Origin: Paraspadella gotoi
Lineage: Eukaryota > Animalia > Chaetognatha
NCBI GenBank assembly: GCA_051294375.1
Contig: CM119265.1
Coordinates: 12,888,124-12,952,123, forward strand
Length of the DNA: 64,000 nucleotides
Reading direction: 5' to 3'
The notes below the pieces were generated by a model. The model saw nothing but the letters and a program-made list of their open reading frames with translations, searched no databases and was not told where the DNA came from. This document shows, piece by piece, positions 9,101-37,645 of the stretch; within the stretch, counting starts at the first letter, position 1, and each line of letters opens with the position of its first letter. The position numbers and the translations under genes are program-made.

Positions 9101-12100
9101 ATATCCACTTGTTCGTCTCAAAATACCTCTACAATCTTAATAATCAAATATTCATAGAAAAATCATCTAACAACAAGTATTTGAACACCATCAATATTCG
9201 CCATATTGCAAACTCTATTCGCACACATGGCATCGGAATTATGAACACTACCGTCAACTTTACTTTTCAATTTCTCGGAAAAAAATTCAAGATTTTTTCT
9301 GAATTTCTCTTTGATGAGCATATCAAGTCTAAGTTGGTAAAAGATATCCGATTCTTTCGTGAACATCATGCCAAATCCGATCAGAAGTTTCCCTTTGACC
9401 GAGCTGAGCGTTTCAACCGGGCAATCAGGAAGCTCGGAGTGATGGAAGATGGTTCATCGTAAGTTCTACTGATATTTACTGAAATTATAGATTACTTGAT
9501 TGCTTCTTTTTAACTTAAAAAATGTATTAACTATATTATTTCCAAAATTGGTTAATAATAAATTAGAATATAAGAAAAACATTAAGACGTTGTGGCAGCG
9601 CGACTGAAAGCTGCCTCACTGCTGTCCGTCCTCAGCCTTGTCTCAATGTCTGAGCAGGCTAAATTATCTCTTTCAACCATGCGTCCAGGCTTCAACCCCT
9701 GGGGATCCCGGTTCTGGCTTAAATGCGACGGAGCCGGTTTAAATATGCCAGTGACAGGAAGCGGTCACTGAGGGTCCGCAATCCTCCCGTTGCCATAATA
9801 TTAATTTTTGAGTCAGCAGATGATGGTCAATTGGTCATGTTAAAGGAAAACTATATTCATATTGATTCATATTCATAATATTATTCATACTGCTTAGATT
9901 AAAAAAAAGTCGTTGAATTTGTTTCAAATTTTTACTTTTTTTTCACTTTTTTAGCTATTTGGACAAATTCCGCGAGGTGGTCACGCAAATTGGTAACGCG
10001 ATGGGCTATATTAGAATGATTAGATCCGGAGGTCTTCATTGCGTTGCAAACGCGATACAATTCATTCCGAGCGATGCCGAACTCCCTATGACGGATGAAA
10101 TCCCCGGCGAGGATGGCAGCAATGGGTAAGTTTAGAGATGTTAAGGAAATTTTTGCAATGAAAATTTGGCTATTAAGGGTTGTCACCATATCCAAGTTAA
10201 TGTTGTCCAATGACTATTTTTTAGATTCTTCCATAAGCTGGTGGAGTCTGCTAATTTATCGAAGGAGACCTCTAAAGCTGCCTGCAACCTTGATGAGGTC
10301 GTCGCAAATTTGGTAAGAAATTTCGCCGAAGGCACCGAATATTTCAAAATGCTGGTCGATGTTTTCCATACGTCGATGAAGCAGCATTCGCACCTGAACA
10401 ACTTCTGGATTATCGTCCCGCCTCTTATGATGAATTTTGTTGAACACATGCTGAACGCTAAAGAAAAGCTGAACAAAAAGAACAAGAGTAAGTCGGTATG
10501 AGTGACTTAATTATAAACAAAGGCATTTCCGTATTTTTTTTTTTCAGTTGGAGCGGCCTTCACGGACGACGGATTCGTTATGGGAATCGCATTTATTCTT
10601 AAACTTCTTGATCAGTACACTGACTTTGACTCGCTCCATTGGTTTCAATCTGTTGCCGATCATTACGAAGGAAAAAAGAAAACTGTTCATGTAAGTAACT
10701 GAGATCGGATATTGTAGTCGTTATTAAAGTTTAAACACGTTTTTCACCCAAGTCTGCACTGCACTACAACCACTTAAAATGCACGTGCTCGATGAAAAAG
10801 ACTGGTGGACCATGCTTATTGCTCAATAGTCAATATTCATTAACTATCATTTCATCACTACTTATTTAGTTTATTACTGGATTATGTATATGACAAAATG
10901 TTCCCTTAATAGGCGCTATACACTATACACTAATATACAGTCATGTGGAAAAAAATCGCGCCACTTTATTTCCGACTTTAAAAATCACCCTATACTATAG
11001 ACTAATTAAAAAATTTAAAGATTTAAAAATAAATTAAAGTTTATTAAAAAATCTTAAAAGTATAGCGATCTCGGCAGACGTTAATATCAAAGAAAATTAA
11101 TGAAAAAATCCATCTGGCGAAATAAAAATGTTTAAGTTTAACATAAATTTTATTAAAATTAAACCATCTGTTTAAAAACAATACTTTTTAAAATTTTTTA
11201 CTACAAAGCTCAACGTGAAAGAATATGATAGATTTAAGATTAATCTTTTTTCTTATAATATTTTGAATTCCTTATAATAGATTAAAAATGGAAGAATAAT
11301 TAAATAACTGGATAAACCCAGATCCATAAATAATAATTTAGATATGATGAATGATAGGTCCATAATTCTGAAGCTTTTAGATAAAAATCGATTTTCCCAT
11401 AATTTTAAAATATTTAAGTTTAAAAAATCATCTTTTAAAACATTTAACAGATTATAATAAAATTTAAATATATTAATTTGTTTTTAAATTTTTTTTATTA
11501 GGAAAAAACAGTTTTTGTTTGACAACGATTTATTTGACACAATTTAGTCAGACATGTTTCGGCTCATTCATTTAGAGCCTTCATCAGTGTTTGACAATCA
11601 ATATTTTGTCTCTGTTGAAGTAAGTTTTTGAGAGAGAGAAAGAGAGAGAGAGAGAGAGAAATTGAGGGAGAGTTTCCAACAAAGAATAAGGTAAGGGACA
11701 GTGGTCAGATCTGAGGACAGCTGAAGGTGAGGAGAGGGAAGAAGTAAGTCTTTGAAAAATGAAATGAGAGTGGGAGAGAGAGAGAGAGAGAGAGAGCAAA
11801 GCAAAAATTTTTAAACAATACATTTAGCAATGTACAACAGAGATAAAATGCATAAAATCTAAACATAAACTGAAATTAATGTTAACAATAGAAATTAATA
11901 AGTTAGTAGAATAAAGTGAAATTTGAAATAGAAAATAAGTGGTGAGGGATAGATAAGTGAAGAAAAGTGAAAGTAAGTAAAAGAAAGAGCTCAAAAATGA
12001 GCTGGCCCCCCCCGGCCGGGCAAATGGAGGACGTTGACGATAAAGTCGGGTCATTGGCCTGTCATAGGTTGCGAGGGTATACTTGTAGAGTTTGATATGC

Positions 12101-13784
12101 TTGGATCCGGAAGAGATCCGCTTGGGAAAATGCCAAGTGCTACTCGTATATCCCTTTGGCCTGATAAGCCTGCCGACAGCCCTCCTCTCACCTGACGGTG
12201 AGGCAGGCAGTTGCCTGTTCTGGCCTGTTTTGCTACAGGAGATACAGACTCCTCTCCCTCCTCCTGTAGCCGTCGTTTTGGGCGACGCTCAGCGCGAGGA
12301 GAGTCGCGCCAAGTTGCTACAGGTTCAGGAAAGGTATCGGACGTCCATTGCCTGCTGAGAGGTCTCCGCCTGATCCGTTGAGTGGGAACAGGGGAACATT
12401 GTGCGGTTGGGGTGGCTCTGGGCGTTCCACCACCATTTGGATGAGCGAATCATAGCTTGGAGGGAGGTCGAATCGTCCTCCATACGGTTCAGAGAGGGTT
12501 CGAGAGCTTTGATGTAGATTGCCTCTCTAATACCTCTAGAAAACCAGTTTTGGTCATGGGACAGCACGAGACAGTCAGTTTCTCTGAACAGATGGCCAGA
12601 ATTTGCCGTGTGCTCGGCAATGGCCGATAAGTAATGACCACGTGGGTCCCGATATGGCTTTGTGTGCTGCTTGAACGATCTGTCAGAGACTTTTCTGTCT
12701 CGCCCACGTATGCTGCTGTGCAGGGTTGGTTGCCCTTCCCTGCACAGGCCGCCCAGTAGACGGTCCTGATGTTTTCGGTCTGGGGATTTTGTCTTTCGGT
12801 TTCACCAATTGCTCACGTAAGGAGCCGCGGGTCGTCACTGCACTGGATATCCCCTGCTTTGCCAGCACCCGAAATTTCACTTTATTCTACTAACTTATTA
12901 ATTTCTATTGTTAACATTAATTTCAGTTTATGTTTAGATTTTATGCATTTTATCTCTGTTGTACATTGCTAAATGTATTGTTTAAAAATTTTTGCTTTGC
13001 TCTCTCTCTCTCTCTCTCTCTCCACTCTCATTTCATTTTTCAAAGACTTACTTCTTCCCTCTCCTCACCTTCAGCTGTCCTCAGATCTGACCACTGTCCC
13101 TTACCTTATTCTTTGTTGGAAACTCTCCCTCAATTTCTCTTCTCTCTTCTCTCTTTCTCTCTCTCAAAAACTTACTTCAACAGAGACAAAATATTGATTG
13201 TCAAACACTGATGAAGGCTCTAAAGAATGACCGAAACATGTCTGACTAAATTGTGTCAAATAAATCGTTGTCAAACAAAAACTGTTTTTTCTAATACCTC
13301 AAAAACAACGAAAGGAGAGTATATACATAATTTTTTTTATATAATTTTTAAAAATATTTTAATAGATTGTTTAGAATTTAAAGATATGTGCAAAAAAATG
13401 CGCCACTTTATAAATGTACTGTACCTTTTTATTATTAATTTTTTTTTTTATCAGAATAAGCTAAATTGATATAGAGGCGAATAATAACGATACGGTACTA
13501 AATAGATATAAATTAGTGCTTTTTTGTATATGAGTGTACTGTAACTTTTAAATTATTGATTTTTTTTACAGGAACAACAAGCCAAATTGATATCAGGAAG
13601 CGCTAAACCCGACGAAAAATTGCAACAATCAATGAATTTAACAGTGAGGAGGCTCGATACCTATCAAAGAGAATTCCAATTATTAGATTTCTCCCTCAGT
13701 AGCGCTAGAATTTTTTTTCGCGCTGACAAAACGGCGGCAGAAGAAAAGGAGGAGAAAGAAGAAAAAGACAATTCTTCTAGTTAA
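6195..13784 (+). CDS. WASHC4: WASH complex subunit 4 (SWIP / KIAA1033)
   Basis: Conserved motifs [90 protein letters not shown] and [10 protein letters not shown]. Exons: 6195-6476, 6658-6778, 7006-7181, 7246-9458, 9955-10125, 10225-10487, 10548-10690, 13572-13784, all GT-AG and in phase. Confidence 0.96.
9588..9800 (+). other. GC-rich, highly self-complementary ~210-nt island in a WASHC4 intron (structured RNA or retroelement-derived repeat)
   Basis: Sharp GC contrast with the AT-rich intron. The ends pair (TTGTGGCAGCG / CGTTGCCATAA). Internal hairpins: AGCCT..AGGCT, CCAGG..CCTGG, CCGGTTCTG..CGGAGCCGG, AGTGAC..GTCACT. Confidence 0.45.
11545..11592 (-). ncRNA. Minimal type I hammerhead ribozyme of the PLE pseudo-LTR
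   Basis: The - strand reads CA-CTGATGA-A-GGCTC-TAAATGAAT-GAGCC-GAAA-CAT-GTC-TG: conserved CUGAUGA and GAAA cores, 5-bp stem II, palindromic minimal stem III (ACAUGU) and a GUC cleavage triplet. Stem I is short. Confidence 0.8.
13203..13247 (+). ncRNA. Second, damaged hammerhead copy in the inverted pseudo-LTR
   Basis: CTGATGAAGGCTCTAAAGAATGACCGAAACATGTC. The core is intact but one G of stem II (GAGCC to GACC) and one loop T are missing. Confidence 0.65.
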
Positions 13785-19029: not shown

Positions 19030-22000
19030 TCAATTAAGGAATTTTCTGCATTTTTTTGAGCCGCAATAACAAGGTATTTTGACGTCTTCCTTAGGGAACT
19101 TGTAATCGTAAGTTAGTTCTTCGCCGGGCAGAATCCGTCGCTGAGCAAAAATGACGATGTGTTCAAGTCCCTCGGGGCCGCGAATGACTCGGGAGAAACA
19201 GTTAGGTTCGCAAGAATGGTTGATAAAACGGGCTGTGGGATTATGGATAAAATGAAATTGAGGAAAAAAGCTTCAGCATACGCAAAAACAAATGAAATAA
19301 CCAAACAAATTTGATATCTCAATCTCACCGGCGTTGCCGTGCATTGTCGCGTCAATGACGGTATCCGGGTCGATTCTGAACATATAGCATCCGATTCCTT
19401 TAGATTCGTATTTCATTTCACGGGCGTCGGTGAGAAAAGAGCGAATGAGCTGTCCCGCGTATTCGATGATCATTTCTCCTTCTTCGATGGTGCGCTTGCA
19501 AAATAAGCCTCGACCGTGAATTCGCGATCGGTACACGCCAACCGCTTCTTTGGCAGTCTGAAAAGGAAATCATTTTAGTTAGTCACGACTTGGGTAAAAA
19601 TTCCAAAATCACTTCTGACCTGTTTGAGGAACCGAAACCTCATTCCCAATGGAAGATGTAAGCAGGCAGTGGCGCGTTTGGCGGCCGCCGTCACCAGCGA
19701 TTCCTCCGATTCGGGAACGGGCGGAACGGGAGGTAGGCGACGATGAACAGAGGCTAGAAAGTCGAACATGTCGAAATCCGAGCGAGAAGCGTATGGTTCC
19801 GAACGACAGCATCCTGACAAAAAGAAAGTTATTTAATAAAAAATAACCAATTACTTAGTCTTCCTTGAATTTTATTCATATGAGTTCAAGCGCTAACCAG
19901 AATGACTTTCTTCAATGTGGTCGTCTTCTTCGTTTACCCGCGCCGCGTGCGAAAACCAAAATTTGTACAGTTTGAGCCTACTTCTTCCTTTCAGTTGTTC
20001 CAAGATGTAAACGATAGACGCTCGATCGAGGCCAAACATAGCTACTCCTGAACGAGCACCCACGAATGACAGCGGATTCAGCCCTAACAATTTTCGTCCT
20101 GCAGAGAAAATTATGAAGGCACTAAAAGTCGGATAAACAGAGTGGCTTAAAAAAAAAATTGACAAAAATAAGATTTCCGAAAATGTCAGGTTTTCACTCA
20201 CCACATTGAATTTTTGCCGTGATATTTATCCAAGCATCGTCGATGTTTTCGCTCTCCATAAAGAACCCGTCATCACTTCGGATCCGAAACACAATCTTGC
20301 TCTCCACCTTCTTCTCTTTTTTTCTGGGTGAACCGCTCTCTCCGACTGTTGATTTGGGCCTTACTAATCTCGTTACGGGACGTAAACCACCTCGGCGACA
20401 CGTCCAACTGTCTCCCGGGACCGAATAGTCCATAGCAGGGATCTGATTTTCGTTGCTTTCGTCAACCTCTTCCTTTTCTTTCCAAGGATCGACAGGCAGT
20501 CGCGTCGTTTTTGATGGAGATCGGATCAAACCCTCAACGCATCGCTTTTTCGAAGGCGTCGGACCGGATATCGCGAAAGATTTTGACAGGGTCGGGGAAT
20601 CGCCTTCCCAGTCCATCTGCAGCGGAAGGCCGCCCGCGCCCTTTTGCTGCATCCGCTGTTGCATCCAGGATGTTATTTGCTTCTCGTTAAGTCCAGTCTT
20701 GACCATGAGTTTATCAACGTCGCTGTTAGTTAACACAGGATTGGGAGAGCCGCTCAGAGTCAACGGGCCGCGATGGTGAGTTTCGAACCAATGTTCCAAG
20801 ATAGCCGTTTGAATGTCTGAAACAAGGCAGGTCTGCATCTTTTCAACCTTGGTCCTCCGTCGATTTTTGCACCATTCGAGAATAAACTCTCGGGACTTGT
20901 TAGTTGACTTGACAAGCTTATAAATTTCGCGACTCGTAGGGAATCCCGTTTTGTGATTCACGAACCACTTTTCCAAAAACGTAACATAGTTCGACTTTTC
21001 CTGATGTGACGAAGTGGCGCTGTTTTCGTCGAAACGTTGGCCAAGAATTTGTTTTCGACCGTGTTGCTTCCGTTGGTTCTCCAATTTTGGCTCCTCCTTG
21101 ACAATGTTCTTTTTGATGGGCTTTTTGTGATGATGATCGTGGTCTTCCTCGCTTTTTTTCTTTTGATTTACCGTCGACATTTGACGGCGCACTGCGAACC
21201 AATCTTGCGTTGTCTTCATCGGGATTCCAACCTGCGAACTGATTGCTTCCACCTCGGCCGACGAGGGAATTTCATCCAGCTCGTCGTAGCCTTGCATCTC
21301 GAACCACCGTTCCAACGTTTCCATGATCCTATTTGCATGCTCATCCATCGTTCGAGAGGAAGGACTTGGTTTTCCTGTCATTATAGACGAGCGGATTGCT
21401 TCAAAACGACTGCGTCTGAAAAATAAAGGTCATTTTGAATTACACAGTAAATAATTGAACGACAAAGAAATGAAAATTTTCAAATTACTTGTTTCACTAT
21501 TTTCTATTTTTATATTTTATGAAGGATTTAGTATTTGATTTATATTGTTTAAAGTTTTAAACAATATATATTGCTTTCTTTCTTACTAATCTTACTAATC
21601 ATTATATCTAATAACTCAATTTGGGAAGGGGAAGTCAGAGTTGTCATCTGGAAATAGAGGGAGCATCTATACAACACAAGGTTAAATTACAATCTGTCCT
21701 AGTTTTCTAACAGATATCACACATCATTTCTGTTAGAAAGTCATTAATAAAAAATCCTAATATGAAATTGGTACAACCAATATAAAAATTATCCATTCAT
21801 TTAATAAATAAGCTATCTTGCCCCTGACTGATAATATATAAGAGGCTGAACAGAAAGGGGTAGGAATGGATAATTTTTTGAGGGGGGACCAAAGTTATAT
21901 GTGATTTTTTTTACCAATAGGGGCACCTTTATGTCATGAATATAATTTTAAAATACTTTAATGAAAATTATATTTTTTCTTTATCCTATTTTTAATTATT

Positions 22001-25000
22001 TCTTTTTTTGAATATTTTTTATTTTTAATGTTTATTCAATGGGAAAGTCATCAGTTGGGAAACTATACCCTTCATGGATTTCGGCTCTTTAATCCCAATA
22101 TCCAGGTATAGGCGAGCCATCACCAAATGGTGATCCTTCATTGTTATCTTATATTTTAAAGGTATATTTTGAATGTATAATTTAAACAGACCAAAGCCCT
22201 AGTATCACAGCTTTATTAATTTTAGGGAAATTTATTAAGGTTTTGTAATAATTTGTAAATGAATTAAATAAGTTAAATAATTAATTAAATATTAAGTAAA
22301 TAATCAAGGGTATGTTAATGTAAAGTTAACATTAAGTTAATTAATAAAAGTTAAAAAATAAGTTAAATAAGTTTTTTAACTAATATTGTTGATGTTATTA
22401 TTATTATTATTTAAAGTGGTTTAATTTTGTTATTTTTACCTTATTATTTCTATTAGGAATTATCATGTATAATCTTTTTCGAAAATAGATTAATATCATT
22501 AATTTTATTGTTTACAAACAACGATTTTTTTTATCAATAACTACATGTTTATTGTTAAAGCCTTGCTTTTGCAATGCTTTATCAGCGCAATTTTCATAAT
22601 TCGGGGTAATTCGGAACACTTTTGGAAGTAATCCAATTTTCGCATACTAAATTTATTAATTTTTTTTTCTGGTGATATATCTTGGAAAGTGTCCCCGCTT
22701 AAGGTATTCGTTTTATCCTGCGGTCACAAGGGGCCGCATTTTTAAAACAAGAACGGTGATTCTAATGTGTTGCGCCGCAGTGACTTTATTTATTTATTTT
22801 CCCTTTGATCACATGATATGATTTGACATGACATGAGTAAAAAGCATTCTTAGCCCTTGTATTTATGATATGCACTGCATCGAGTGTTTTATTTATTCCT
22901 CAATCCTCATAGTTTAAAGATTTCCTGAGAAAGGCGCTAGCAGTCCCTTAGTTGCTTCGCGAGTACTCGCGCCGCGACTAAAAATAGAACACCTAATATA
23001 ATATGTATACATTTTTATAATATTACAGAAAATAATAACTAAAACACTTAATAAGAGCATAAAGCCTTTCATTAATGTTTTATGTATCAGTTTTGCAGTT
23101 TTTCAAAATTATAGAATCGTTGTACTACCTAACAAAATAAACTTTTGTTTTCGCTAATCCCTAAAACAACGAAAAGAGAGAAAATAACACAAAATATATT
23201 TGTAATAATATTCTTATAAAATAGTAAATTTTAAAAATAATTTTTTTAAAACTTTTAATAAAGATTCAGATTTTTCATAAAAAGTTGAATCAAAAATATA
23301 AAACGTGTTATCAAAAATTATGTCATCTTCAGCGCTTAAAACGGAAAAAAGGGTGAAAATTCTTAACTTTTTTATTCTCTGTAGTAGAAACTTATATATG
23401 TTAAAAAGTTTTAGTCATTTTTTGTGATCCAAACATTAAAATATCGTATAAAATATTTTTTAAGTTTCTTAATTTTTTACGGTGAATCCAAATCTGTTCT
23501 TAAAAATAAAAAAAATATTATTTTGAAATTTAACGATTTAATAAAGATATTACTACATAAATAATTGAATTTACTACACTGTTATGCTAAAAAAAATTTT
23601 AAAAGGATTTAAAATTCATTAATCACATGTCCATAGGCAGCAAAAAAATATTGTTCAATCACTCAATCTTTTCATCACAATGCATAGTTCGTACATCTCT
23701 CAGACTTATTTTGCTGTACCTCATAGATCGATCTCAGAGGTCATGGTTAATACTAATAGCTAAAGAAAAACGTCACTCACCGATAAGTCAGCGTTGACCT
23801 CTTGTTCTGGAACCACTTATTCACTTTCTTTGCTGGGACGTTACTGAGTTTTGCGAGTTCCATGATTTGCTCTTTTGTAGGTTCGTAGTTTCCGGTTTTT
23901 TTAAGAAACTGGACGAGAATTTCTCGGCGCTCAGATTCGGGCACAATAAATCGGTCTTGTCGGCGCGCCTTGTCGGGCGAATTAACGACCGAAGACGATG
24001 GCGTTGAAGAGGGCGTAGCGGAAGTTGAAGTCGGCAAAGAGTCAGTCTCACGTTTTATGGAAAGATCAAGCGGGGAATTTGAATGACTACGAAGAGCGGG
24101 GTCTACAAAGATGGGTGCCGCGGATGCCATTTTATATTCCAGAGCCTCTTGTGGCACCGTGACGCCTCGTTCGTTTGTTTGATCGATTCCAACGGGATCT
24201 TCTTCTTCCGTCCCTTCGACACCCAATGATCCCGTCAACGAAAGTAAAGTTTCTGCAGCCTGCTGCAAAAAGTCTGTCTCTTCCGCGGCAGAAATTCCTT
24301 CGTCAAGGTCAGCGACACCACTGCCAAACAAAGCGCCCGAGGTAGGTGTGGCGTTTCCGCCAGAGGCGACGGAGCTATTATTTTCGCGAAGGACGCTGTC
24401 AAAAAGCGACTCGTCGGCGGCAGCGAATCTCGACGATTCGTTTGGTGACGCGATTTCCTCGGCGGTAGCTTTTCCTGTATCATTGGGCAAGTCAGCCTTA
24501 ACACGAACGTCGAGGGTGAACCCATCTTCAGTCCGAGTGAATTGGTCCATAGGGCTCGGGCTCCGAATGACGCGACTTTCGGCGACGTCCTCCCAACAGG
24601 AATTCGATTCGTTCCCAACCGTTTCCACTTTCATTACCGTCGTCGATTCAGACGCCATTTTCCTTTTTCGTCCATAGGTCTTTTTCCCTGAATCAGTAAA
24701 TCGCGAATTCAAGAATTCGCATGCGTCATCGCCCTGCATCGAAGAAATTAACGTTATGCTTGACTCATTCGGCGATGGTACGCCCCCGCGATTTACGTAA
24801 ACCGTTTTGTTATTGATGGAAGTCATTGAGGCCGACAAAAGCGGCGGAGAGGGTCTAAATGTTTCGCTCTCATCGGCGTCTTCTATGTCGTTGTTCAAAA
24901 AATAAGTAGGAGATTCTTTTTTCGTTGCGAGTGAGAAAAGATCAGAATTGACTGTGGTTATAGGACCGTTGGTCCAGTTCGATATGAGCTGGTTCGTGTC

Positions 25001-28000
25001 TTTCTTTTCTTCAACCAATTCTGAGTTGGTGTCTTGATAACTTTTCGAGGACAATGAATTTTCTAAAAGATCGTCTTTAACTTTGGGGCAGATTACGTAA
25101 TGCTTACGCAAGGCGCTGTAGTCTTTGCAAACGATTCCGCAACCGTAACAGTTTTGTTCGTTTGTTGGACAAAATCTGGTGTGTTTAGCCAAACCCTGTT
25201 TACCAAAGCAGCCCTGTCCGCACTTCGGGCACTCGATCAAAGCCTTGTCATTACCAGAATCCAAAGGAACGGAATGAGTTTCTTTGGAGTCGATGCGAAT
25301 GCGTTGGTTGGTACAAACCAGGAGATGATCCTCTCTCGATTCCTCGGGAGAGAAAACTTTGTCACAACCGCAGCAAACTTCCATCTTTGGGCAAATCGGT
25401 AAATGTCGATTGAGATCTTTTAATCCCTCAAAGACTGCTTCACATTGATTGCAAACCTGAGGGCCAGGGGGAGGGGGCGGCGTAGGAAGTGTTCGACCTT
25501 TGGTTAATGCCTTCAGAGTTTTTGGATTCAAATTGGAGAACCCAATATTCGGTGATGGCTCTGCTGAATGAGACACTTTTACGTTACTCTTAGAGGAAAT
25601 AACGGTCGAGGAAGTAAGAATTGCGGAAGGCACTGCTCGCGTATTGGCGATTGAGGATGAAACGGATGGTGAATTAAATTCGACAGAAGCAGCAGTTGAT
25701 ATCGGCTCGACTTTCTTGAAAACGATTTTAGAATTCATTTCTGCATTTTTTGTCATACGACGGTTGGCAAACCACATGTTAATGCTTGCCTTAAGTAATC
25801 CAGTAGCGACCATTAGCTGCATTACCTGAATATTGTTAGGTGAATCAGAAGTATTTTGAAAAAAGTCTTCGAGAATTTCTCTATTCTTTTTAGTGTTGGC
25901 GAGAATGTCTGTGGTTAATGGTAATGATTTAGAAGTTTCATCGTTTGATGGCGGTGCAGGAGTGATGGAGACGGATTCGATAGGCGAGAATGATCCTTCC
26001 CCAATATTAGTGTCAAATTTCATAGTATCATGGCTCAATCCTCCTACAGCGTGCTTGACTGGAACAATCTGCGGATTGGTACTTATTGGATGCGGACTAT
26101 TAATTTTAGAGATTGATTCATTCAATCCAGATGGAGAGAGAGAAACAGACGATACACTAAGATCAGCTGAGGTTGGCCCATTAATTGATGACGATAAAGC
26201 TCGGTTTACATTTGTGATAGATTGAGCATTTTGACTACCAGTAACTGACGACTGTTTTGTTTGTAATTGCAATTGTGGTATTTGGTTAAAAAATTTTAGT
26301 TGCCCATTGACATTTATGGCGATAGGGGCCTGTGATGGCTGCGAAGATATCATGTTAAATGCATCTAAGTTTGAGGAACTGGATTTAGGCCCAAATCCGG
26401 TTATTTGATTGGCAGAAGCAGAAGCATTTATAGAATTTGCTATAGATAACAGTTGAGCCGTATTAACAAAAATTGGAGGTTGGGACGGTAAAACGGGAGA
26501 TGAAAATGGTTGCTGAACTTGAACATACGTTTGTGGCGAAGTTTCGAGTTTAGGAAATATTTGAGTTTGCCTAGCATAAACAAAATGCGGATGATTTGGT
26601 TCTTGCTTCATGATTAATTGTTGAGGTGTTTGAGATTGAACTAATGGTTTGTTAACGTTTTTATTTTGATTTTCGAAAATAGTCCTTTCGAGCTGCTGCT
26701 GTTTCTGTCGTTCCTTGAAAGACGCCTTAGCAGTTGCCTTTTCTTTTTGTTTGACAAGAGGACAATACCTGAGTAAATGACTCCGTAAACCATTTTCACC
26801 CCAAAAGTTATTTTTGCAGTGGGGACACTGCTTAGTAGCCGGCGCAATACTGGAAGTAACTTTCTTGTTGAAACCTGTCTGAACAGTTGGGGCTTCCTTT
26901 AATTGTTCTGAGACTACCGAATTCTCCTGCATTGTCAAGGCATTAACAGCTGCAGCAGCCTCATCATGCATCGGAATAGGAATTCCTTCTTTCCGATTTT
27001 TGAATTGTCTCGTTTGACATGTCAAAGTTTGCTGATGGGACTGAATGCTTTGACCCTTCTTTAGAACCATCCCACACAGATTACATTTGTAACCAGCATC
27101 AGCCAGACATTTCGTTCTATGCTTTCCATAAGTCCATCTGCTGGAAAAAACAATTTGACAAATGTCGCATCTTTTTGGACCTTTACTCGGACTTTTTTTA
27201 TTTCCACTAATGCCTGGAGCAGGAAGAGTAGCGGTAGGGGTGGGAACATTTTCTGATTGAGGTGAACAATACTGAACAGGATTAAAATTGGCACTAACGG
27301 CGTTAATGGCACCCGAAGGTCGCATCAAACTAGATTGAGCAACGGAGACGTCCGTAGCGGCTGGTGTCCGCATCTTACAACCGCCACCTAACTGATGTTC
27401 CTTCAAGCTGCAGTCGTTGGGAAATTCCCCCATACAATACTGGCAAAATTTATTAGATCCTTGATGCAATAGATGACGCTGGAAGCTGCTCAGATCGTAA
27501 AAGGTATTGTCACAATAACGGCAAAAAACAGAGTGTAGGGGAGCAGCGAGAGTATCGTACTTAAGTCGGCAATTTCGCAGATGACCCAAAAGTTGCTTCA
27601 TGGTATTAAACTTGGTACGACAATGGGCACAAAGTTCGGGTGTGTTACCGAGTTTGGCTTCGCTCACCTTCTGTTTTTCTAGTGCAATTTTGGAGCACAT
27701 CGAATTAGATGTTGGCTTAAGATGATCTTTAAGTTTTTCCTCCGAGTCAAAACAATGGGAACAATTCACGCACTCGAAACAACCACCAGGCCCATGAACG
27801 CATCGTTTTGAATCTAAGTCGAGAGAGACATCGGATTTAATCGGAGCATCTCGAGATTTTGAAACCACCGCCTTCTGTAAGGGCAAAACCCTAGACGACA
27901 AAAAATTTGGCTGTTCACCGATGGAGCCAGATGTTTCCACGAGTGAGAGTGGAAGAGACTGAGGCATTAGAGGAAACGGTTCTGGAACGTTAAACTCGTT

Positions 28001-31000
28001 GACTACATCCGGGGCATCTACAGGAAGATTCTCCGCCAGAGATTCTACATCGATTTTCTCTCCCGGAGCCAATATGGAGCTTTCCTCCAGATTGTAGGAA
28101 AATTGAAATTCCGAACCTGCAACGTCAGGACTTCCAACGGGAGTCACGATCGGGGACAGGCCAGATTCGGCAGTCAGGGTAGAGAAGGACGATGCAACAG
28201 ACTCTTGGGTAGCTTCGTCGTCAGTTTCGACGTCTCTGACCTTGAGCAAAACGTTGATACGATCCACAGAGTTTTCTGAACACGAAGCCAGGGCCTCGTC
28301 ATCTCCGACATAAACCACCTCTTTCTTAGATGTTTTTTTGTATTTTGTTTTTAAGATATCTATTACATCTTCGGGCGCGACGTATGTCGGAGCTTGTGAA
28401 TCGCGATGATCGAATGTCACGTCGGCATTAGGATAAGATGACGCGGCGACGTTCGGACGAACTTCAACGATGGTGCAAGTGTAAACACAACGTTGGCCAG
28501 GACGAATGGCGCTCCAAAAGACTCGAGAGACGCTGTATCCGATCGGGTAAAGGCACTCTTTAGTCTCCGAGACACGGTGGAGTTCGCCCCAGGAAGCGAC
28601 GGTCAGAGATCCAACGAGCAAGCGGAGTTGCTGAGGCTGAAGCCCTAAAAAAGGGAAAAAAATATCTTACATTTTGTTCGATTGAAAAACTGGTACATGC
28701 TGAAGTAATCTGCGAAATACGAATTCGAAACTATTTTTAAATACTTAGGTATGTAGTTTTTAAAATATCAACGTATTACTTTGTACGTACGTTATAACAG
28801 GAAATTTGTCAAAAAAAAATTCTGTCAACATCTCACCTTCCTTCCAGTTTCTTTTCAACCGATCCTCCGTCAGAGCTCTCAAGTTGATAAACAGCCTCCG
28901 ACGGTTGACAAAATCCTGCACCAATTCCTCGTGACGGTTCGATCTGTCGTCTTCTTTGGCGGCGTGTGAAGGACAGAGGACGCGCTTGGCGCAATGAAGC
29001 CCCAACAGAAATGCACAGCCTGTTAGTCTGGCGCACATAAAGTGGTATATAGCGGTGCAACCGTTTACGTGACAAGCGACGGAAGCTCCAGATTCCCGGC
29101 AACAATCGCAGCGAAAATTTTCGGCATCCTTAAGAAAGTTTGCGGCATAAAGAAGGCCGCCGCCGCCGTCCTCGAAAACTCCGGCACTCCATAGGACGCA
29201 GTTGGCGTGGAGCCAGTCGTCTTGACCGGCATAGAGGAGGCGTCCTTCGTCGGATGGTTGGCCTTCACCGTAAATAGAACAAAGACGACATTGGCGAGAG
29301 TCGTTGTCTCCCTTAATCGCGGACGGGTTTCCAGACGTCGAAGACGACTTCGTTTCCATCGAGGCGGTTTTGGGGCCGAAAAAGGCGTAAATGTGATCGC
29401 TACTTTCAGGCTGTCTCGTCGGAATGATAGACGGTTTTTCCGGCGTCACGTTGTGCTTCTTGATTCGCAGCTTTTCCGCTTTTCGCGATGAACAGGAAGA
29501 AAGAGATTCGTCATCGCTTTCACCTCCGAGCATCTTTTTTGCGTCGAACCAAGGAAACTGCTTCTCGATTTGCTGACTGAGAACGCGTACAACGTTGACT
29601 CCGTGCTCTTTGAAAGAATTATCCGAGGGCCCCGACGAAACGTTCGTGACAAAAGTGATGATGCGAAGGACGTCCTTGACGAATTCTGTGACGGATGTAT
29701 ACTTTCCTCCCTCGAACTTGGACTTGATCTCCAGGAGATTTCTAGGAAACCCGTTGTTTTGAAGATCCCACCCCGAGGTTAACTGTTCTTCGGCGATCCA
29801 TTCAGGAGATGTAGGATTGAGTTGAATAAGAAGCGAAGAACTCGGAGCATCGAGAAGTTTCACCAAAACGGCCATTATTCCTTTATGAAAAGTAAAGAAA
29901 ATAAATATATCGATAAATACAAAAATCGATTTCAATTCTTTTTCTAATATACCTGAACTCATCTCTTCCCAGAGAGCGAATTGCCACGGTGCTGGTCTTT
30001 TAGTCAAACACGTAACGCAAAGGTATGGGATGTTGTCGGGCAATACAGAAAGAATCTCATACATTTCATCCGACAGTTTTTCGCACTCGGCATGAACCCA
30101 CATGTTGCATCTCCCACACTGTACCATTTTTGAGGAGTAGTCCGATTCGTCGTACCTAGATAATTCAATTCATATTATCGATTATAATTTTTAAATTATT
30201 ATCACTATTCTTATAATTGAAGAATGAATGTTAAGGTCCCAAAAAATTGACAAGAACAAGTATAATTAATCGATCTCACAAGGCAACAGATAATAATTCC
30301 ATGGGTTCAATAATTCGATAGGTTTAAATTTATAAAAAAAATTAAAAACCAAATTCTATACTTACTACTTTTTATACTATTATCTTAAACTTATAATTTT
30401 AAATTGCCAAAAACGATACCCCTAAAATGAGACCCATAAAACCTAATTATGCCAAAAACATTGATTTACCATTTGTGACAAAGCGGGCAACAGCTTCCTT
30501 GGTCCATCAACTTTCCGCACTGGGCACAAAGCGAAAAGTCGTGCGTCCATTTGGCACCAAACGGGCCCGGAGTTGTCGCCCCGCAGTTCTTGCACTTCAC
30601 GCACGCGGTACACATCCAGACGCCATTTTTAGATTTCTTCTTAGCGTAGTTTGAACCGCCAACACACAGAGCGTGAAATGTACGGTGACAACCGTTGCAA
30701 GATAGAACGTCCTTTTGAAGGCCGCAAATCTCGCAGTACCTGCATTTGTTGCAGACCCAATTCTCGATGAGCTTGAAAGACGTCTTCAAAGGAGTAGCTG
30801 ACTTGAAATTTTCCGATTCTGGGCGCACTAAGGAAGATGGAAGACCGTTGTCGTTAGAGTCTGGAGAAGAAGGTGAAACTTCTTGCATGAAGGGACGCTC
30901 GCTCGGAGGCAAACAAAACACGTGAAACGGTTCGCAGCACACGTTGCAATAGATTAGAGCGTTCATATCCACTCCAATGCTCCCACACAGGAAGCACGCG

Positions 31001-34000
31001 GCGTTAACAGGAATGGCTTCAGAAGATGCGAGCGTCCAGCCGCATTTCCAGAGGGTGCCTCCAGAAAAGTCGTGAATGACTTCATGAGCGACTTTTAGCG
31101 AATGAATTGGGGACAATTTTTTCGCCGGTGTCACATTTTGCTGAAGTCCGTAACCGGCCGCGGGAGCATAGGTTGTGATGGCTTTGAGGTCTTTTATCGA
31201 GGTCGGATTAGGTTTATGACGAACAATAAGGTCGCTCAGAGCGGGGTCCTTAGCGTTTTTAAAAAAGCTGCGTTGCATGGTGGCTCGATCGCGGAGGCGG
31301 TACTGCCGAGAAGGATGTTTATTTGCGTGTTGCTTTCCCGATGCAGGAGCTGAAACGTCTAACTGCTTGTGCAGCTGTTTGTCCTGCTTTTGTTGCAACT
31401 GTCGATGTGCAGCCTTGCTAAGTTTTTGTGCTGCGCTAAGCGCTGCGCTGACAGGAGTGTGGGGTTTGCGGAAGGGAGATTTCTTGAGAGTTGGATTACG
31501 AGATGGGGTCAGGGGAGATACAGAAGAAACCGCCTTCGAGTAGGATCTTACTGGCAATTCATCCTGAACGAGATTCTCCTCCTCGCCTTCATCGTCGGAG
31601 CCAAAGTAACGAACCTCGTCGTCCTCTTCCTCAAATTCGACCAATTGCTTAAGAATGTTGGGCGTGAGTTTAGCCAATTCCGGATATAGGGACAAACATC
31701 GACGAAAAATACAACCGCGTATTTTCTTTTTTCTTCCGTTACTTCGCTTGTTATCCGACCGTTTGCGCTGGATACAAAAAATACACTCATCGCAATTCGG
31801 GGCCAAACATCCCGCGCATTCGTTGCAACGAACACGAGATACGAATGGTCTCCGAGATGATGGCGGTGTGACGGGTGGAGAACTAAAGGTGGGCGAGGTT
31901 ATCGCGGCTACACTAGGGGGCAATGAATCATCCTCATTTTTCAGAGCTTCAGTATTGGATGCTCCCTCCTCAAGCTCATTGCTAACATTTTTCTCCCCGT
32001 CGTTGTCCAATAAAAAGCTTTCGCCCAGTAAAGTGTCTGCATTTTCTAGGTGGTTACTGGCATTATCGTCACTCGGAAAAATTTCATCGTCATTGGAAAC
32101 AACGAGATGATTTGAATCCCCTTCACTGACAATATCCTCATCCGTATCGTTTGCATCATCTTCATGTGCATCTGTATCGTCATCCGTCGCAGTCTCACTA
32201 TCTGCATCTTCCTCACAGACAGTCTCATTGTCACTTCTATCGATTTTGGTGAGCTCTTCGTCCTCACTGATGATGTCTTCGTCGTCGTCTGTAGAAACCA
32301 ACTCGTAAAGATCAGGAAGAGTTTTTTCATCCGATTGTTTCATGCGAATTTTCAGTTTCATCATGGCCGACTTGGGCCTCGACATTGTTTCTTCTTTACT
32401 TCCATTGCCTTTGACAATTTCATTATCCTTATAATTAAAATCATGGAAATCTGCACCGCCGACTTCTTTCTCCTCCAAAATTTCTTCCTTAGTGGGAATC
32501 TCATTCTCAACTAGATTCGACAAACTTACCATGCATTCTTTCATATCAAATGGTTTAAAGGGTGATCGAAGTGAAGATTTTGACTTAACCGCACTATCTT
32601 CTTTCAGGTTTGGAACTCTCACGATTAAGTTTTTGTCATATTCTTGAGTTTTTAAATTGCTATCTCTCATTTTAGATTTTATAACAGTATTTGTATTCAT
32701 AAAGTCAGATCCTTCCACTACCGAGGACATAAATTCTTCGTCGGTTTTTTCGGAAGAGATAGAATCTTCTAGAGCTGTATTACCTTTACAAACATCTTCC
32801 GTTCCATAACTTGGAACATCGTCAGAGTTTGAAACTTCGTCTTCTCGTGCTTCAGGGTTTAAAACCTTAGAATTAAAAACATCGTCTTCTTTCATTTCTA
32901 AGTTTAAAACGTCTTCGCCATCTTCAGAGAACAAGACATTAACATTTGTTTCTTCTACTGCTTTCAAGTTTGAAACTTGGTCTAACTTCTCTTCAGTATT
33001 TAAAACATGCTTTATTATTTCAGAGCTAAAAACTTTGTTTTCTCTGTGTCCAGAGTTTGAATTTCCACAATTACAGTCCAAAACATCCCCCCTTATTTCA
33101 GAGTTTGAAATGTCATCTGTCGCTTTTGAATTCGAAAGTTTGTTTGTTTTCGTAACAGAGTTGGAAACGATTTCTTCTTTCATTTCAGAGGTCAAAACCT
33201 CATCTGTTGTCGTAGAGTTAGAAACATCGACTTCTTTCCTTTTGGAGAACAAGACATCCTTTTTAGATTGCAAAATCTCTTCTTTTGCTGAGGGCAAACA
33301 AAGTGTTTCAGAGTTTATAAAATTATCTGAATGACAGTTTGTGTGACTATATTGTGAAATATAGGAGTTACTTTTTAACTTGAAGACTTTTGAGGCTTTT
33401 GAACATAAGACCTTGTACTTTTTCGTCCCAAATGCTTCCACCATTTTGTACACTTTTTGCAAATACAGTCGTCGGGCGAAAATTCTACGTTGCGGCCCGA
33501 TCCATCGGCCGCTGCCATCACGCATTGGATTAGCAAGAAAGTGTGCCACATTCCAAATTGGTCCGAAATATCGCACCGAACGCCAGTTGGGCGTTGTAAT
33601 ATCGAGATTCCAACCGCCTCTATTCTGTTCTTTTGTGTTCTGTTTACCGCTTTTTTTGGATGCATCCCCATGGTTACCTCCGTCATTTTTTTTAGTACCG
33701 CCGAAACCTCCGATACCGCCTCCGCCATTTTCTCTTTCTGAACCACCACTCCCAAGCCCATTATCACCCCCCATTGGCGGTGGTGGGGTCGGCGTCCGTC
33801 CTCTTTTTTGTACTTTGTTGTTCCCATGAACGTTTTCTTTCTGGAGCTTTCTGCATCTGCGTCTCACGCATCTTTGCCGCAAAATTTGGCGGCCTCCGTT
33901 GCGCGCGGAATCCAAGCAGAAAAGGCAAGAGTCACAATTAGGAGCACGACATCCATCGCAGTCATTGCAACGGCCGACGAGAAAGTCCTGTTCCATGGGA

Positions 34001-37000
34001 TCCTTGTCGGTCTTGGAGACGAGTTTTTTCTCTCGTGTACCTTTTTTCCCTAAGATTACCTTGGGTCTCCAACGAGTTTTTTTCAATTTATTATTTCGTT
34101 CTTTTCGCTGCATCCAGGACTGCCGTCGGTGGGTGGCGACCAGCGCTTCATCGGCCATTTCGTTGGTGTTTTTTATAAGCTCATCAAACGTTAATCCTTC
34201 CGAGTCTGAGTTCCGGACGTTTGCTTCCTCGATGGCTTTAGTCTTTTCATCGGAAGGAAGGGCTGAAAGGCGTACGAAATCGACGCTGGATTCGGATCCA
34301 ACGCTCGACGTGGCGTCGTCGTCCGCGGCATCCAGTTTCGAAAAGGGCGGAACATCGTTACCTAGGGATATTGACGCAAGAGAACCGCACTTGGCGGGAC
34401 TACCTTGCCGTTTGGCGACGGAGGCCTTCCGACACACATGCTTTATTCGAGGTCCTTTTACTTCGTCGACCGAATCATCAAAGACTTCTAGCGGTAATTC
34501 ATGATTTTCCTCCGTAAATTTTGAATCTGATACGAAAAGCCCGGCCTTCGTTTCCTCTTCGGCGTGTGAGGATATTGAATTGTTGTTCCCCTCGCCAGCG
34601 TCGCCATTGTCGACGCCGACGCCGAACGAGGGCGAAGGTGCAGGAAATTTCGGTCTCTTTCCGCCGGCCTTGCCAAGACCCTCTTGGGGACCGTTAAAGG
34701 AGGACGACGACGTGGTGGACGGTCCGTCATCATGTATGCCGACTGGAGATGTCGGAGAAGAAGCGCTCAAGCTGAACAGAGGATAAAAATAATGCAACTT
34801 ATTGTAACTATTTCGTTTATTTCAGGAACTTGTGTAATGTGTATTCTTACCGTCTCAGTTTAGGCGGCGGCGACTTCTGTACGCGACAGGCATCGCACCT
34901 CGCGTTTCCGTGATCGAAGCTGACGCCGCATTTGGAGGAGATATGTTTGGGGGAGTGAGAGCCAGGTCCATGTGTCCATGATGTAGGCGCGCAACCGGAG
35001 CAAACGGCTGATTTGTCTGATTAAACGAAATTAAATTATATACAAGAGCAAAATTACGTTGTTTAAATTAAGGTTTAAATAACGAACTTTCATCACCGTC
35101 AACGTGTTCTCGACATATGACACAAACTCGTTCTCTCTCGCTATCCGTGAGTTTTCGGTTTTCGCCAGTGCTGTTATCGTAAAGTAAAAAGGTTAATGCG
35201 GTCTTTCAACAAATAAAGGAAGATAAAAACTAACACAGAATACCTGTCTCGCATAACAGAAAGTAAAGAATCAAGTTGAGGCGATTCATCGAGAGGTTTA
35301 GGAGAAAGCAAACCTCCGGTGATGCATTCGATTCTATACGTAAATTAAAATAAAAAATTCAAGACGTTTTCTCGCCATGAAATGGACAAGTTCGTTATTT
35401 CCTTACTTTGAGGAAGAGTTATGATCGTTTTTGGTCGTCATTCCAGTGGATCGTCTTGTTACGGTTTTTTTTTCATCCTCACGAATCTATCATTGATCAG
35501 AGGGAGAAATTAAAACTTTATACGTTTTTTATCGTCAACTTTGAAAACATACCCAAGTTTCACTAAATTTCCCAGGGCCAAGTTTTGATGAGGCCCTAGC
35601 AACATCTGCCAGGGCGCCTTTTCGTGGTTTCCAAATGAGAGATTGATCGGAGGACGTGTGCCCCTTGCCTTTTGGAGATATCTCATTCGACGATGGTTCA
35701 ATCGATCGATTGGGGGAAACTGAAAAACCTGAAAAAATGTTGTACGACTTTCGTAGAGGGGCTTGATCGGGAAGTAGAACTAGATAGACTTAAAAGAAAC
35801 AACCAAGATTAGTTACCTGGAATGGTCGGAACACTGACACCCTCGGCCATGTACCACTTCAACTTGTTGGAAATCTTCCTCTCGCGTTTGCCCGAAAGTA
35901 TCGTTGTCTTATCTAAAAGCGCCGAGTTTTCCTCCACCCATTCCATCGCCCAACCTTTAGATTTGGAACGGGGCGATTGCGGGTCGCTACGCCGCGTTTC
36001 AGGAGGAACAAACTTGGGTGGCGCGATCACAGGCTTTTTAGAACAATGCCAATCTAGACGAATAGACGAAAAATATAATATCTTAGCAAGTATTTTTCAT
36101 TATTGTATGATTTTAAGTGGTTAGGGATAAGATACCTGGTTTATTCATATCTTTGGCAGGGCTCGAGCTCACGGACGAAGGAAGAGAAATCAGATCCCTA
36201 TAGTCGTCGCTCGTGGAACTTCGAAAAGAAATAATACGTTATCAATCATCCCAGCTTTCAGTTACCGTCAGAGAGCTGAACGACCTGGCTAACCTGGGGG
36301 ACGAGTCGAGGCCGGATGAAAGAAAAGTAGATTTTCCAACGGATGAAACGGAAGAGGCGCCGGTCGAGGCCGCCGACGACGTGGTGGAGTCTCCAGCGTC
36401 TGAAGGGCAGGGAGAAGGTAGTCGATGCGGGTGTCTCCGATCCAATGATCTCCTGATGAATATTAACATCATTATTTTAACTAAGATAAAAGGAGAGAGA
36501 CAGTTAATAAGAATCTTACCTAGAGGATCTTCTCATTTCTTCGTCTATGATCAATGGAGGCGTCGGAGATTTGGAAATGAAATCCCTTTCGCTGACGGCC
36601 CGCGATTCGATCTTTTTTCCTTTAGTCAACGAGGAAGTTTTGTTCCTTTGGCTCTCGTTCGCGGAAGAAGAAGACATGGGAGAAGAGTCACGACTTGCTT
36701 TAGTTTTGACCCTTTCTGACGTCAAGCTCTTCAAAGTAGCATCAATCATCTCGGATGCCACCGTCGTTTTTCTCGCTTTATCCTTGTCGCAAGGTAATTG
36801 GGAACGCTTGGAAAACTCCGGGCTTGTTTTCGTAAGTGGCTTTTCCGCGGGTTTCGAGGCGGCAGCTTCCGTTTTATTAGATTGATTGGGCAACGATTTT
36901 TCTGGCTTGTTTTTGAGGGATCGCGAGGAAACTACACGAGAAACGGTAGATGTCAAGGGTGAAGATTTGGATTTTTGTTTTTTGTCGCCAGATTTCGTCG

Positions 37001-37645
37001 AGTCGGTAATTTTAATTTCGTTTTTCGGCGTCCCTTTAGAAAGACTCTTCTGCCTAGAATCGCCGCCTCCAGAAGGTTTTTGCTTGTTATTGTAAAACAA
37101 TTTGTTGCTAGGATCTCCAACGGGCTTGGAATTTCCTTTGCTATTCTTAGATTCGTTTTTAATTTGAGGCATTACTCCCGGGGGCATTTCCACGTCCGAT
37201 TTTTTTGAGGAAGAGTTTTGTTTAGACTGGGCAGTGGAGGAAATCGGCACAGAATGCTTTGGGGTGACACTACCCTTTAATCCACTAACAGTACTGTTCC
37301 CTTGGTCTTCTTCAAAAGCATCGAGAAAAGCGGCGTCGAAATCCGTTTCCGACTTATCGACTTCCGAGCAAGAAAATCCATCAAAGTCGTCCACGGATGA
37401 GTCATCGCTTAGAGATCCACCGAAAATGCTGTATGCGTATTCAAAGCAAAACGTTAAAAATTTATATAATATTGCTTTTAATAGTATAGTATTTATTATA
37501 CGAACCTGTGAAAACCTTCGATGCTCTTTTTCAATTTTCCGAGGGCCTGTCCGAGGGCTTCAGGCATATCAGGTTTAGTCTGGGGTAAGCGCGCCCGTCC
37601 AGCGCGATGTCCCGGTCGCGCCGGAAAGCGTGGACGCGCAGCCAT
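19030..37645 (-). CDS. KMT2A: KMT2A/B (MLL1/Trithorax)-type histone H3K4 methyltransferase with extra CXXC, CCHC zinc fingers and homeodomains
   Basis: N-terminal menin-binding [12 protein letters not shown] (ATG 37645). CXXC at ~33850-33975 and ~31695-31835; PHD1-3 ~31000-30000; bromo-like and ePHD 29880-28840. FYRN ([30 protein letters not shown]) at ~28640-28470 and FYRC at ~20300-19960. Win-like SGCCRSE, SET ([39 protein letters not shown]) and post-[16 protein letters not shown], with stop at 19030. About 19 GT-AG exons. Confidence 0.95.
21761..21828. repeat. 68-bp dispersed repeat (probable 3' tail of a second PLE family)
   Basis: TATGAAATTGGTACAACCAATATAAAAATTATCCATTCATTTAATAAATAAGCTATCTTGCCCCTGAC is essentially identical to 62126-62193 and 62451-62518. 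A partial inverted copy lies at 63648-63672. Confidence 0.8.
22900..23620. mobile_element. Degraded AT-rich MITE-like remnant in a KMT2 intron, related to the element at 60647-61765
   Basis: Shares an inverted TTTCCTGA..GGCGCTAGCA motif (22921-22942 vs 60781-60802) and the internal inverted pair GATTCAGATT / GAATCCAAATC. I found no intact TIRs. Confidence 0.35.

Follow-up and report, generated by a model that had tools for sequence, protein, structure and literature searches.

It has long been asked how Trithorax/MLL methyltransferases find their targets, and what is known points to indirect means: menin/LEDGF, CXXC domains, histone readers and partner transcription factors. A locus of the chaetognath Paraspadella gotoi (contig CM119265.1, positions 12,888,124 to 12,952,123 of the forward strand; this whole stretch of 64,000 nucleotides is called the window below) raises the question whether such an enzyme could also carry DNA-reading domains of its own. 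A first-pass annotation of the window, made from its letters, had claimed that a Trithorax/MLL gene holds five homeodomains in the linker between its FYRN and FYRC domains. We found that this homeodomain-bearing KMT2A/B architecture is real, expressed and conserved.

Five homeodomains in one spliced molecule

The FYRN-FYRC linker carries five divergent homeodomains (HD1 to HD5), in frame and on the minus strand. The helix-turn-helix units lie where they had been proposed, as confirmed by open reading frame translations, Pfam, a custom profile and structure models. The gene, the five units and the intron between the second and the third are as follows.

19030..37645, minus strand: KMT2A/B (Trx/MLL1-2) gene; open 19-exon model, 10 of its 18 introns being listed joints of a 15,244-nt contig
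25736..25918, minus strand: HD1, with W48 F49 A50 N51 R53; Pfam Homeodomain 33.4 bits
23783..23962, minus strand: HD2, with R5 W48 F49 Q50 N51 R53; Pfam 28.7 bits; 39/57 identical to homologue P0127
21416..23780, minus strand: repeat-rich intron of 2,365 bp between HD2 and HD3; GT-AG, precisely absent from the X9 contig
21163..21360, minus strand: HD3, without N51 in any species, 6-residue loop insertion; Pfam 20.8 bits; model against a homeodomain, Z 8.1
20836..21021, minus strand: HD4, with W48 C49 K50 N51 R53 invariant in four sequences; model against the Meis2 homeodomain, Z 9.5
20629..20844, minus strand: HD5, without N51/R53, 12-residue insertion, joined to HD4 by a helix; model against homeodomain 2 of ZHX3, Z 6.0

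The gene (37645-19030) has 19 coding exons and encodes 4,855 amino acids (aa), with no internal stop in the full model. A single spliced contig of 15,244 nt from the public run X9 covers it from the 5' exons to the 3' untranslated region, without a mismatch in the listed pieces, and joins FYRN, all five homeodomains, FYRC and SET in one molecule, which also reaches CXXC. At least ten joints, 23781/21415 included, are among those listed for this contig, and all are GT-AG. The eight introns at the 5' end were placed from the coordinates of the contig record, GT-AG borders and an open frame, with three close alternatives each. Run X9 carries no RNA label, and its RNA-type status rests on the spliced joints of its contig. 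As had been claimed, two units share an exon with FYRN (28644-23781) and three share one with the start of FYRC (21415-20202). The joining intron (23780-21416) is removed exactly in the X9 contig, and HD2 and HD3 lie within one open frame in homologue P0127/P0143, from which the intron is absent; the view that the intron links two parts of one gene, with no nested gene, thus holds, and the homeodomain segments are not spliced out of the X9 contig. Assembled contigs lose rare isoforms, and a minor form skipping these exons could escape notice. DNA contigs from other runs cover both flanks with introns retained, and none of those listed spans the HD2-HD3 intron. Runs X10 and X11, from other organisms, gave short SET and PHD pieces only, leaving the homeodomain exons uncovered. 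Very high-copy repeats are patched together over much of the intron (21500-23700), where the summed contig depth reaches thousands of times that of single-copy sequence.

Sequence, predicted fold and spread of the homeodomains

Scanned singly against the gathering cut-off of Pfam PF00046 Homeodomain (22.9 bits), HD1 and HD2 pass, so the first-pass annotation was right for these two, while HD3, HD4 and HD5 stay below it, each still with a homeodomain family as its best match. The HD3-HD5 exon scanned whole reaches 30.2 bits and passes. With a custom homeodomain profile, for which 13 unrelated multi-homeodomain proteins supplied 40 units, the five score 17-26 bits and the best of 200 linker shuffles 0.5 bits; the profile is partly circular for HD3-HD5, its sources having been found using their exon, and independent for HD1 and HD2 only. 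The best ESM Atlas clusters (0.76-0.80) are homeobox-type, which we take as a lead only. Despite the Homeobox_KN matches, membership of the TALE class was rejected: the helix 1-2 loop has 1, 2, 6, 2 and 12 extra residues in HD1 to HD5, and the three-residue extension of that class was not found.

The numbering of homeodomain residues, and what residues 5, 48-51 and 53 mean for DNA contact, are established knowledge. Among W48/F49/N51/R53, HD1 and HD2 have all four, HD4 lacks F49, HD3 lacks N51 and HD5 keeps W48 only. Asn51 is thus present in three units, HD1, HD2 and HD4, the number first reported. Across species, N51/R53 are retained in exactly HD2 and HD4, and N51 is missing from HD3 and HD5 everywhere. 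HD2 lies 385 residues before FYRC, HD4 about 190 and HD5 124.

The expectation that the units would fold as homeodomains was borne out by AlphaFold2 for HD2 to HD5, the span covered by the models. With a five-row alignment, HD3-HD5 gave three three-helix bundles with a mean predicted local distance difference test (pLDDT) of 71.6, the spacer and the HD5 loop being the only parts with low values; HD2 gave three helices at pLDDT 87-89. In a wide structural search, HD4 matched the Meis2 homeodomain (Z 9.5, root-mean-square deviation 1.3 over 54 residues), HD3 matched PDF2 (Z 8.1) and HD5 homeodomain 2 of ZHX3 (Z 6.0), but a Z below ~13 may reflect an arrangement common for helical bundles. HD2, HD3, HD4 and HD5 are therefore predicted, from these models, to adopt the homeodomain fold. 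Model residues 157-196 form one continuous helix linking HD4 to HD5, and the 30 residues from HD4 helix 3 to HD5 helix 1 are identical at 30/30, 29/30 and 30/30 positions in the homologues P0126, P0127 and P0128. HD4-HD5 is predicted to be a rigid double homeodomain sharing one helix.

These homologues came from a HMMER scan of the HD3-5/FYRC exon against 1.84 billion representative proteins, which returned 17 matches: 4 true homologues, all of them ENA proteins (E 3e-60 to 1e-32), and 13 unrelated multi-homeodomain proteins. Together the four homologue clusters keep HD2-HD5 in order, and two continue into FYRC. A single frame of P0127/P0143 contains HD2, HD3, HD4 and the first part of HD5, and P0128 covers HD3 through the first part of HD5. 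In P0126 and P0129 the sequence extends from HD4/HD5 into FYRC, with HD5-FYRC in one frame, and can be aligned as far as the exon end in the window. Identity of the homologues to the window is 53-62%, and among themselves, where they truly overlap, 69-81%, which implies at least three other gene copies. In a tree of homeodomains, HD2, HD3, HD4 and HD5 each group with the same-position unit of P0126-P0128. Between the window and P0127, the blocks of HD2 to HD5 are identical at 39/57, 29/57, 31/46 and 22/22 positions, and the spacers at 73/152. The 13 other matches (P0130-P0142) are proteins of two to nine tandem homeodomains, mostly Homeobox_KN, P0138 having C2H2 fingers and six homeodomains; by all tests applied they are unrelated to KMT2.

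Elsewhere in the family the domain was not found. PF00046/PF05920 matched none of 120 SET matches up to 2,000 aa (120 of 221 matches) and none of 120 full-length KMT2 matches (120 of 1,077). The custom profile gave at most 0.3 bits on these 240, of which 147 hold the whole linker, and a full Pfam rescan at E<=0.5 of 10 invertebrate or unnamed KMT2 matches gave no homeodomain. Vertebrates dominate this sample, alongside molluscs, one nemertean and a small number of arthropods; it has next to no non-bilaterians, tunicates or echinoderms. With 0/240 on one side and four homologue clusters on the other, the claim of lineage specificity is supported in sequence comparison, as a restriction relative to a mostly vertebrate and mollusc background. 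Two scans of JGI metagenome contigs gave no related locus, and a PHD-region search among proteins of 2,541-5,000 aa gave two matches, both without a homeodomain. A search of full-text literature (subscription papers excluded) found no homeobox-bearing KMT2, 'homeodomain' there being mostly 'plant homeodomain'. The string 'homeo' does not occur in the main text, supplements aside, of a survey of KMT2 architectures in 172 genomes (bioRxiv 2021.11.30.470311), nor do MLL, trithorax or methyltransferase in the available text of PMC6125248. The PRRX1::KMT2D fusion was rejected as a human analogue, since it loses the homeobox according to the accessible part of PMC12967484.

The canonical protein and the linker fingers

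By sequence, the gene is the animal's KMT2A/B (Trithorax/MLL1-2) member. Its domains follow the order menin motif, FxGF, two CXXC, PHD1-3, bromo, ePHD, FYRN, linker, FYRC, GCCRSE, SET and post-SET, which is the order given for MLL1 in the available text of PMC8022399.

37613..37636, minus strand: menin-binding-type motif RPRFPARP, aa 4-11; compare RWRFPARP (vertebrate P0209/P0178) and RLRFPGRP (Lineus P0125)
37374..37385, minus strand: LEDGF-binding-type FxGF motif, DDFDGF, aa 62; aligned to DEFDGF of P0125
33853..33969, minus strand: CXXC finger 1; Pfam zf-CXXC, 2 stretches, E 1e-8
31696..31827, minus strand: CXXC finger 2 (duplicate); Pfam zf-CXXC and alignment
28964..30996, minus strand: PHD1-3, bromo-like domain and extended PHD; Pfam PHD, Bromodomain (weak, E 0.025) and zf-HC5HC2H
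28463..28618, minus strand: FYRN; Pfam FYRN, E 3e-15
19956..20295, minus strand: FYRC, one intron inside; Pfam FYRC, halves 13.2 and 26.4 bits; aligned to KMT2A
19048..19900, minus strand: WIN-like motif GCCRSE, SET and post-SET; KMT2A alignment, catalytic motifs and post-SET cysteines intact

By open frame, Pfam placed the two CXXC and PHDs in 34821-30469, PHD/bromo/ePHD in 30169-28763, FYRN with two Homeodomain stretches and C2H2-type fingers in 28644-23781, homeodomain families in 21415-20202 and FYRC in 20225-19893. The PHD1-3/bromo/ePHD block precedes FYRN, and FYRN and FYRC are 1,935 aa apart. Over 315 aa, FYRC-SET shares 56% identity with vertebrate KMT2A; to deuterostome and protostome matches alike it is ~53-58% identical. 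The SET exon is 72-80% identical to the listed KMT2 matches, SET and post-SET being closest to KMT2A/B. GCCRSE aligns with GSARAE, variants GCCRAE and GCARSE are present among KMT2 matches, and the WDR5-binding arginine is kept. The LEDGF-binding consensus D/ExExFxGF, as given in the part of PMC8022399 available, is satisfied in its FxGF core only. The protein is likely, on these similarities, an H3K4 methyltransferase of standard COMPASS type. Its two CXXC fingers lie ~700 aa apart; Pfam scans of four full-length lophotrochozoan orthologues gave one stretch each.

Compared with KMT2A/KMT2B (MLL1/MLL2) and Drosophila Trithorax, the domain order is common to both, whereas the window adds five homeodomains, ten finger motifs and the second CXXC; pattern scans of its protein gave no match to the AT-hook (RGRP), the DIMDFV activation motif or the Taspase-type site (its pattern as seen in KMT2 matches). 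Lophotrochozoan KMT2A/B orthologues (17 molluscs and Lineus) are like the window in having a long linker with a finger and no Taspase pattern, but theirs holds one finger and no homeodomain, and no linker segment could be aligned to the window at E<=0.05. Several mollusc KMT2A/B proteins have an N-terminal nuclear-receptor-type C4 finger, and so provide a precedent for a transcription-factor-type DNA-binding domain in Trx. Where they have it, the window (35124-34885, minus strand) shows the pattern C-x2-C...C-x2-C...C...C-x2-C-R-x2-K. It is probably a degenerate copy of that finger, and a nuclear-receptor-finger profile at this place (aa 641-693) was not significant.

The first-pass annotation overlooked ten zinc-finger-like motifs, which a pattern scan found in two clusters around HD1. 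Nine of the ten end in Cys, and six are an exact C-x2-C-x12-H-x3-C. Two conserved short motifs also lie in the linker.

26762..27631, minus strand: finger-like cluster 1, six motifs, five Cys-ending; pattern scan, and Pfam zf-C2H2_4 29.1 bits summed over the exon
25088..25453, minus strand: finger-like cluster 2, four C-x2-C-x12-H-x3-C motifs; pattern scan, and Pfam zf-C2H2 27.9 bits summed over the exon
24236..24271, minus strand: 12-residue conserved motif of AAxxL type; retained in P0143 inside a divergent region
24047..24082, minus strand: 12-residue conserved motif with PLDLS and IKRE; retained in P0143 inside a divergent region

We take PLDLS to be a CtBP-type motif, IKRE a SUMO-type site and AAxxL a Sin3-interaction-like motif, all as putative labels. 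One conserved C-x2-C-x12-H-x3-C finger lies in the same linker of the 18 lophotrochozoan KMT2A/B orthologues. The description of this linker as unstructured elsewhere in KMT2A/B therefore needs correction for these proteins. Since nine of ten window fingers end in Cys and one C2HC finger already exists in the 18 linkers, the window's fingers may be a local expansion of a pre-existing one. Against the profile of the lophotrochozoan linker finger they score 0.5-8.1, and control C2H2 fingers 0.6-16.7. In the mollusc and nemertean sequences (P0124, P0125, P0151-P0163, P0165, P0171, P0258) the mid-linker C2HC finger follows a conserved helix-like segment (FKCPTCKRLYRT...H...C); it is missing from the precomputed Pfam domain lists.

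As for the homeodomains, the first-pass annotation had proposed capture of a ZHX/ZFH/ZEB/TSHZ module. Zinc-finger (ZF)-class homeobox proteins act as transcription factors in their own right, have C2H2 fingers and lack SET. The class (ZHX, ZFHX/ATBF1, ZEB, TSHZ) likewise interleaves fingers with several divergent homeodomains; best matches to ZHX1, ZHX2, ZHX3 and ATBF1 domains are weak and single out no class. Among PDB sequences, HD1 was weakly closest to ZHX1 (E 0.0034), HD2 weakly matched ATBF1/ZFHX3 (E 0.0035), with DUX4 and PBX1 alike, and HD4 weakly matched POU6F1, Oct-1 and MATalpha2. The homeodomain tree, with no named ZF-class sequence included, has 8 of 48 branches supported, and the unit nearest to HD1 is HD5 (36%). 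The classical C2H2 fingers of a ZF-class donor were not found. These weak matches and the conserved PLDLS, a motif shared with this class, are the only hints of capture, and nine of the ten fingers end in Cys; capture of a whole ZF-homeobox gene, or local gain and duplication, are both possible.

Around the gene, SIN3-, DDX54-, KMT2- and TGS1-like genes (named by reading translations) stand head to tail on the minus strand (15000-53600). DDX54-KMT2 and KMT2-TGS1 nearly abut, with acceptor-like TTTCAG/TGCAG just before the KMT2 and TGS1 5' ends (ending 37716, 18441), and the array could represent operons with trans-splicing. Between WASHC4-like and TGS1-like genes (11800-12800, minus strand), short frames with GIY-YIG-like 'YVGET...' and 'IREAIYIK' strings resemble what is presumably a retroelement end.

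Possible roles of the homeodomains

What might these domains do? We lean towards the reading, in our judgement a little better than evenly poised, of a WRAD-dependent H3K4 methyltransferase that is still tethered through menin/LEDGF, CXXC and PHDs and has gained a DNA-reading module (HD2 and HD4, with HD3 and HD5 supporting). By family resemblance, FYRN would pair with FYRC, the WIN-like arginine and SET would assemble with WDR5/RbBP5/ASH2L, and menin/LEDGF, CXXC and the PHDs would give a broad tethering to promoters. Judging from residues and models, HD2 (Q50/N51/R53 and R5) and HD4 (K50/N51/R53) would contact DNA via their third helices and bias the enzyme toward particular sites, HD2 being the best DNA-binding candidate; HD1 and the fingers may perhaps contact bases too. 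Because N51 is missing from them in every species, HD3 and HD5 would be spacers or protein-contact surfaces, HD5 being presumably locked to HD4 by the invariant shared helix. With no recognisable Taspase-type site, module and SET would remain parts of a single chain, and after a cut further upstream HD2-HD5 would still travel with the SET half. In human MLL1, according to the accessible text of PMC6647185, the SET half retains no known binding domain after cleavage; here the SET end would have domains of its own.

Several observations weigh against this reading, besides the modest Z values. Singly, HD3 (20.8 bits, E 3e-4), HD5 (17.4; Homeobox_KN 18.4) and HD4 (Homeobox_KN 15.9, E 0.012) are below the Pfam cut-off. 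All five units have loop insertions, and in HD4 Cys replaces F49 and a basic N-terminal arm is not obvious. Foldseek with the HD3-HD5 and HD2 models gave no match at E<=0.001, though the rows listed for both were homeodomain-containing proteins (best E 0.016, for HD2). ZHX-, HOP- and CerS-type homeodomains, which are not classic sequence readers, are among the structural matches. The homologues are fragments, of which none extends to SET and none covers HD1 or the linker fingers. The Taspase pattern occurs in 115 of 147 whole KMT2 linkers but in 0/20 named invertebrate linkers, so such sites do not define the family and their absence here is not special. Finally, all canonical tethers are retained, so targeting by homeodomains may be secondary. 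In this respect the earlier idea of a self-targeting enzyme is no more than a conjecture: with the menin motif, FxGF, two CXXC and PHD readers all kept, the homeodomains would add to the tethers.

A bolder version would make the protein a sequence-specific, PRDM9-like Trithorax, in which HD2 (Q50) and the rigid HD4-HD5 (K50) place H3K4 methylation at defined motifs and compensate for an uninformative CXXC signal. PRDM9 has a role in H3K4me3. PRDM proteins, PRDM9 above all, share with the window a SET-type domain and a sequence-reading array on one chain; they differ in their SET subfamily, in reading by C2H2 fingers rather than homeodomains and in having no COMPASS/FYR architecture. PRDM is described as PR/SET with zinc fingers in the available part of PMC4760075. 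The CpG observed/expected ratio of 1.16 in the window (1.14-1.30 in large exons) suggests little methylation-driven loss, so that CXXC reading of unmethylated CpG would be a poor promoter mark; at a guess, this uninformative signal in an undepleted and apparently unmethylated CpG landscape might have driven the gain of homeodomains. We hold this version to be doubtful.

Of the explanations that compete with a DNA-reading module, the one that survives best, tentative as it is, would have the homeodomains act in protein contact or in low-specificity gripping of DNA or nucleosomes, as do ZHX, HOPX and similar atypical homeodomains, with targeting left to menin/LEDGF, CXXC, PHDs and partner transcription factors. 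It accords with the loss of N51 from HD3 and HD5 in all species, with a conservation that peaks in the helix joining HD4 to HD5 and not only on the recognition face, with ZHX1 as the best PDB sequence match of HD1 and ZHX3 as the best for the HD5 model, and with the usual tethers all being kept. However, R5/W48/F49/Q50/N51/R53 in HD2 and K50/N51/R53 in HD4 are kept in every sequence, whereas those positions drift in HD3 and HD5.

It is improbable that the linker amounts to a repressor-like transcription factor built into the protein, serving as an activator/repressor switch or excised and acting apart from the methyltransferase. Fingers, homeodomain and PLDLS are the layout of ZEB/zfh-1 repressors, which the linker matches, and the PLDLS and AAxxL-type motifs are shared with P0143 in an otherwise divergent region. 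Yet the CtBP and Sin3 labels are putative, a PxDLS-like string is present in vertebrate KMT2A linkers too, no Taspase-type site was found, and no separate short transcript was seen among the contigs, which drop rare forms. An error of assembly or gene modelling, or a separate homeobox gene lying nearby or nested, has next to no probability: high-copy repeats fill the joining intron and no listed DNA contig spans it, but one spliced contig crosses it, FYRN lies in one open exon with HD1-2 and FYRC in one with HD3-5, and in other species HD2-HD5 occupy a single frame, as do HD5 and FYRC.

For the family, this homeodomain-SET architecture is new relative to the searches made, and the FYRN-FYRC 'disordered' linker appears as a place where domains are gained. 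Part of these homeodomains would escape homeobox catalogues and Pfam cut-offs. A natural KMT2 with homeodomains beside SET, kept in several species, would be a test case for direct sequence steering of H3K4 methylation.

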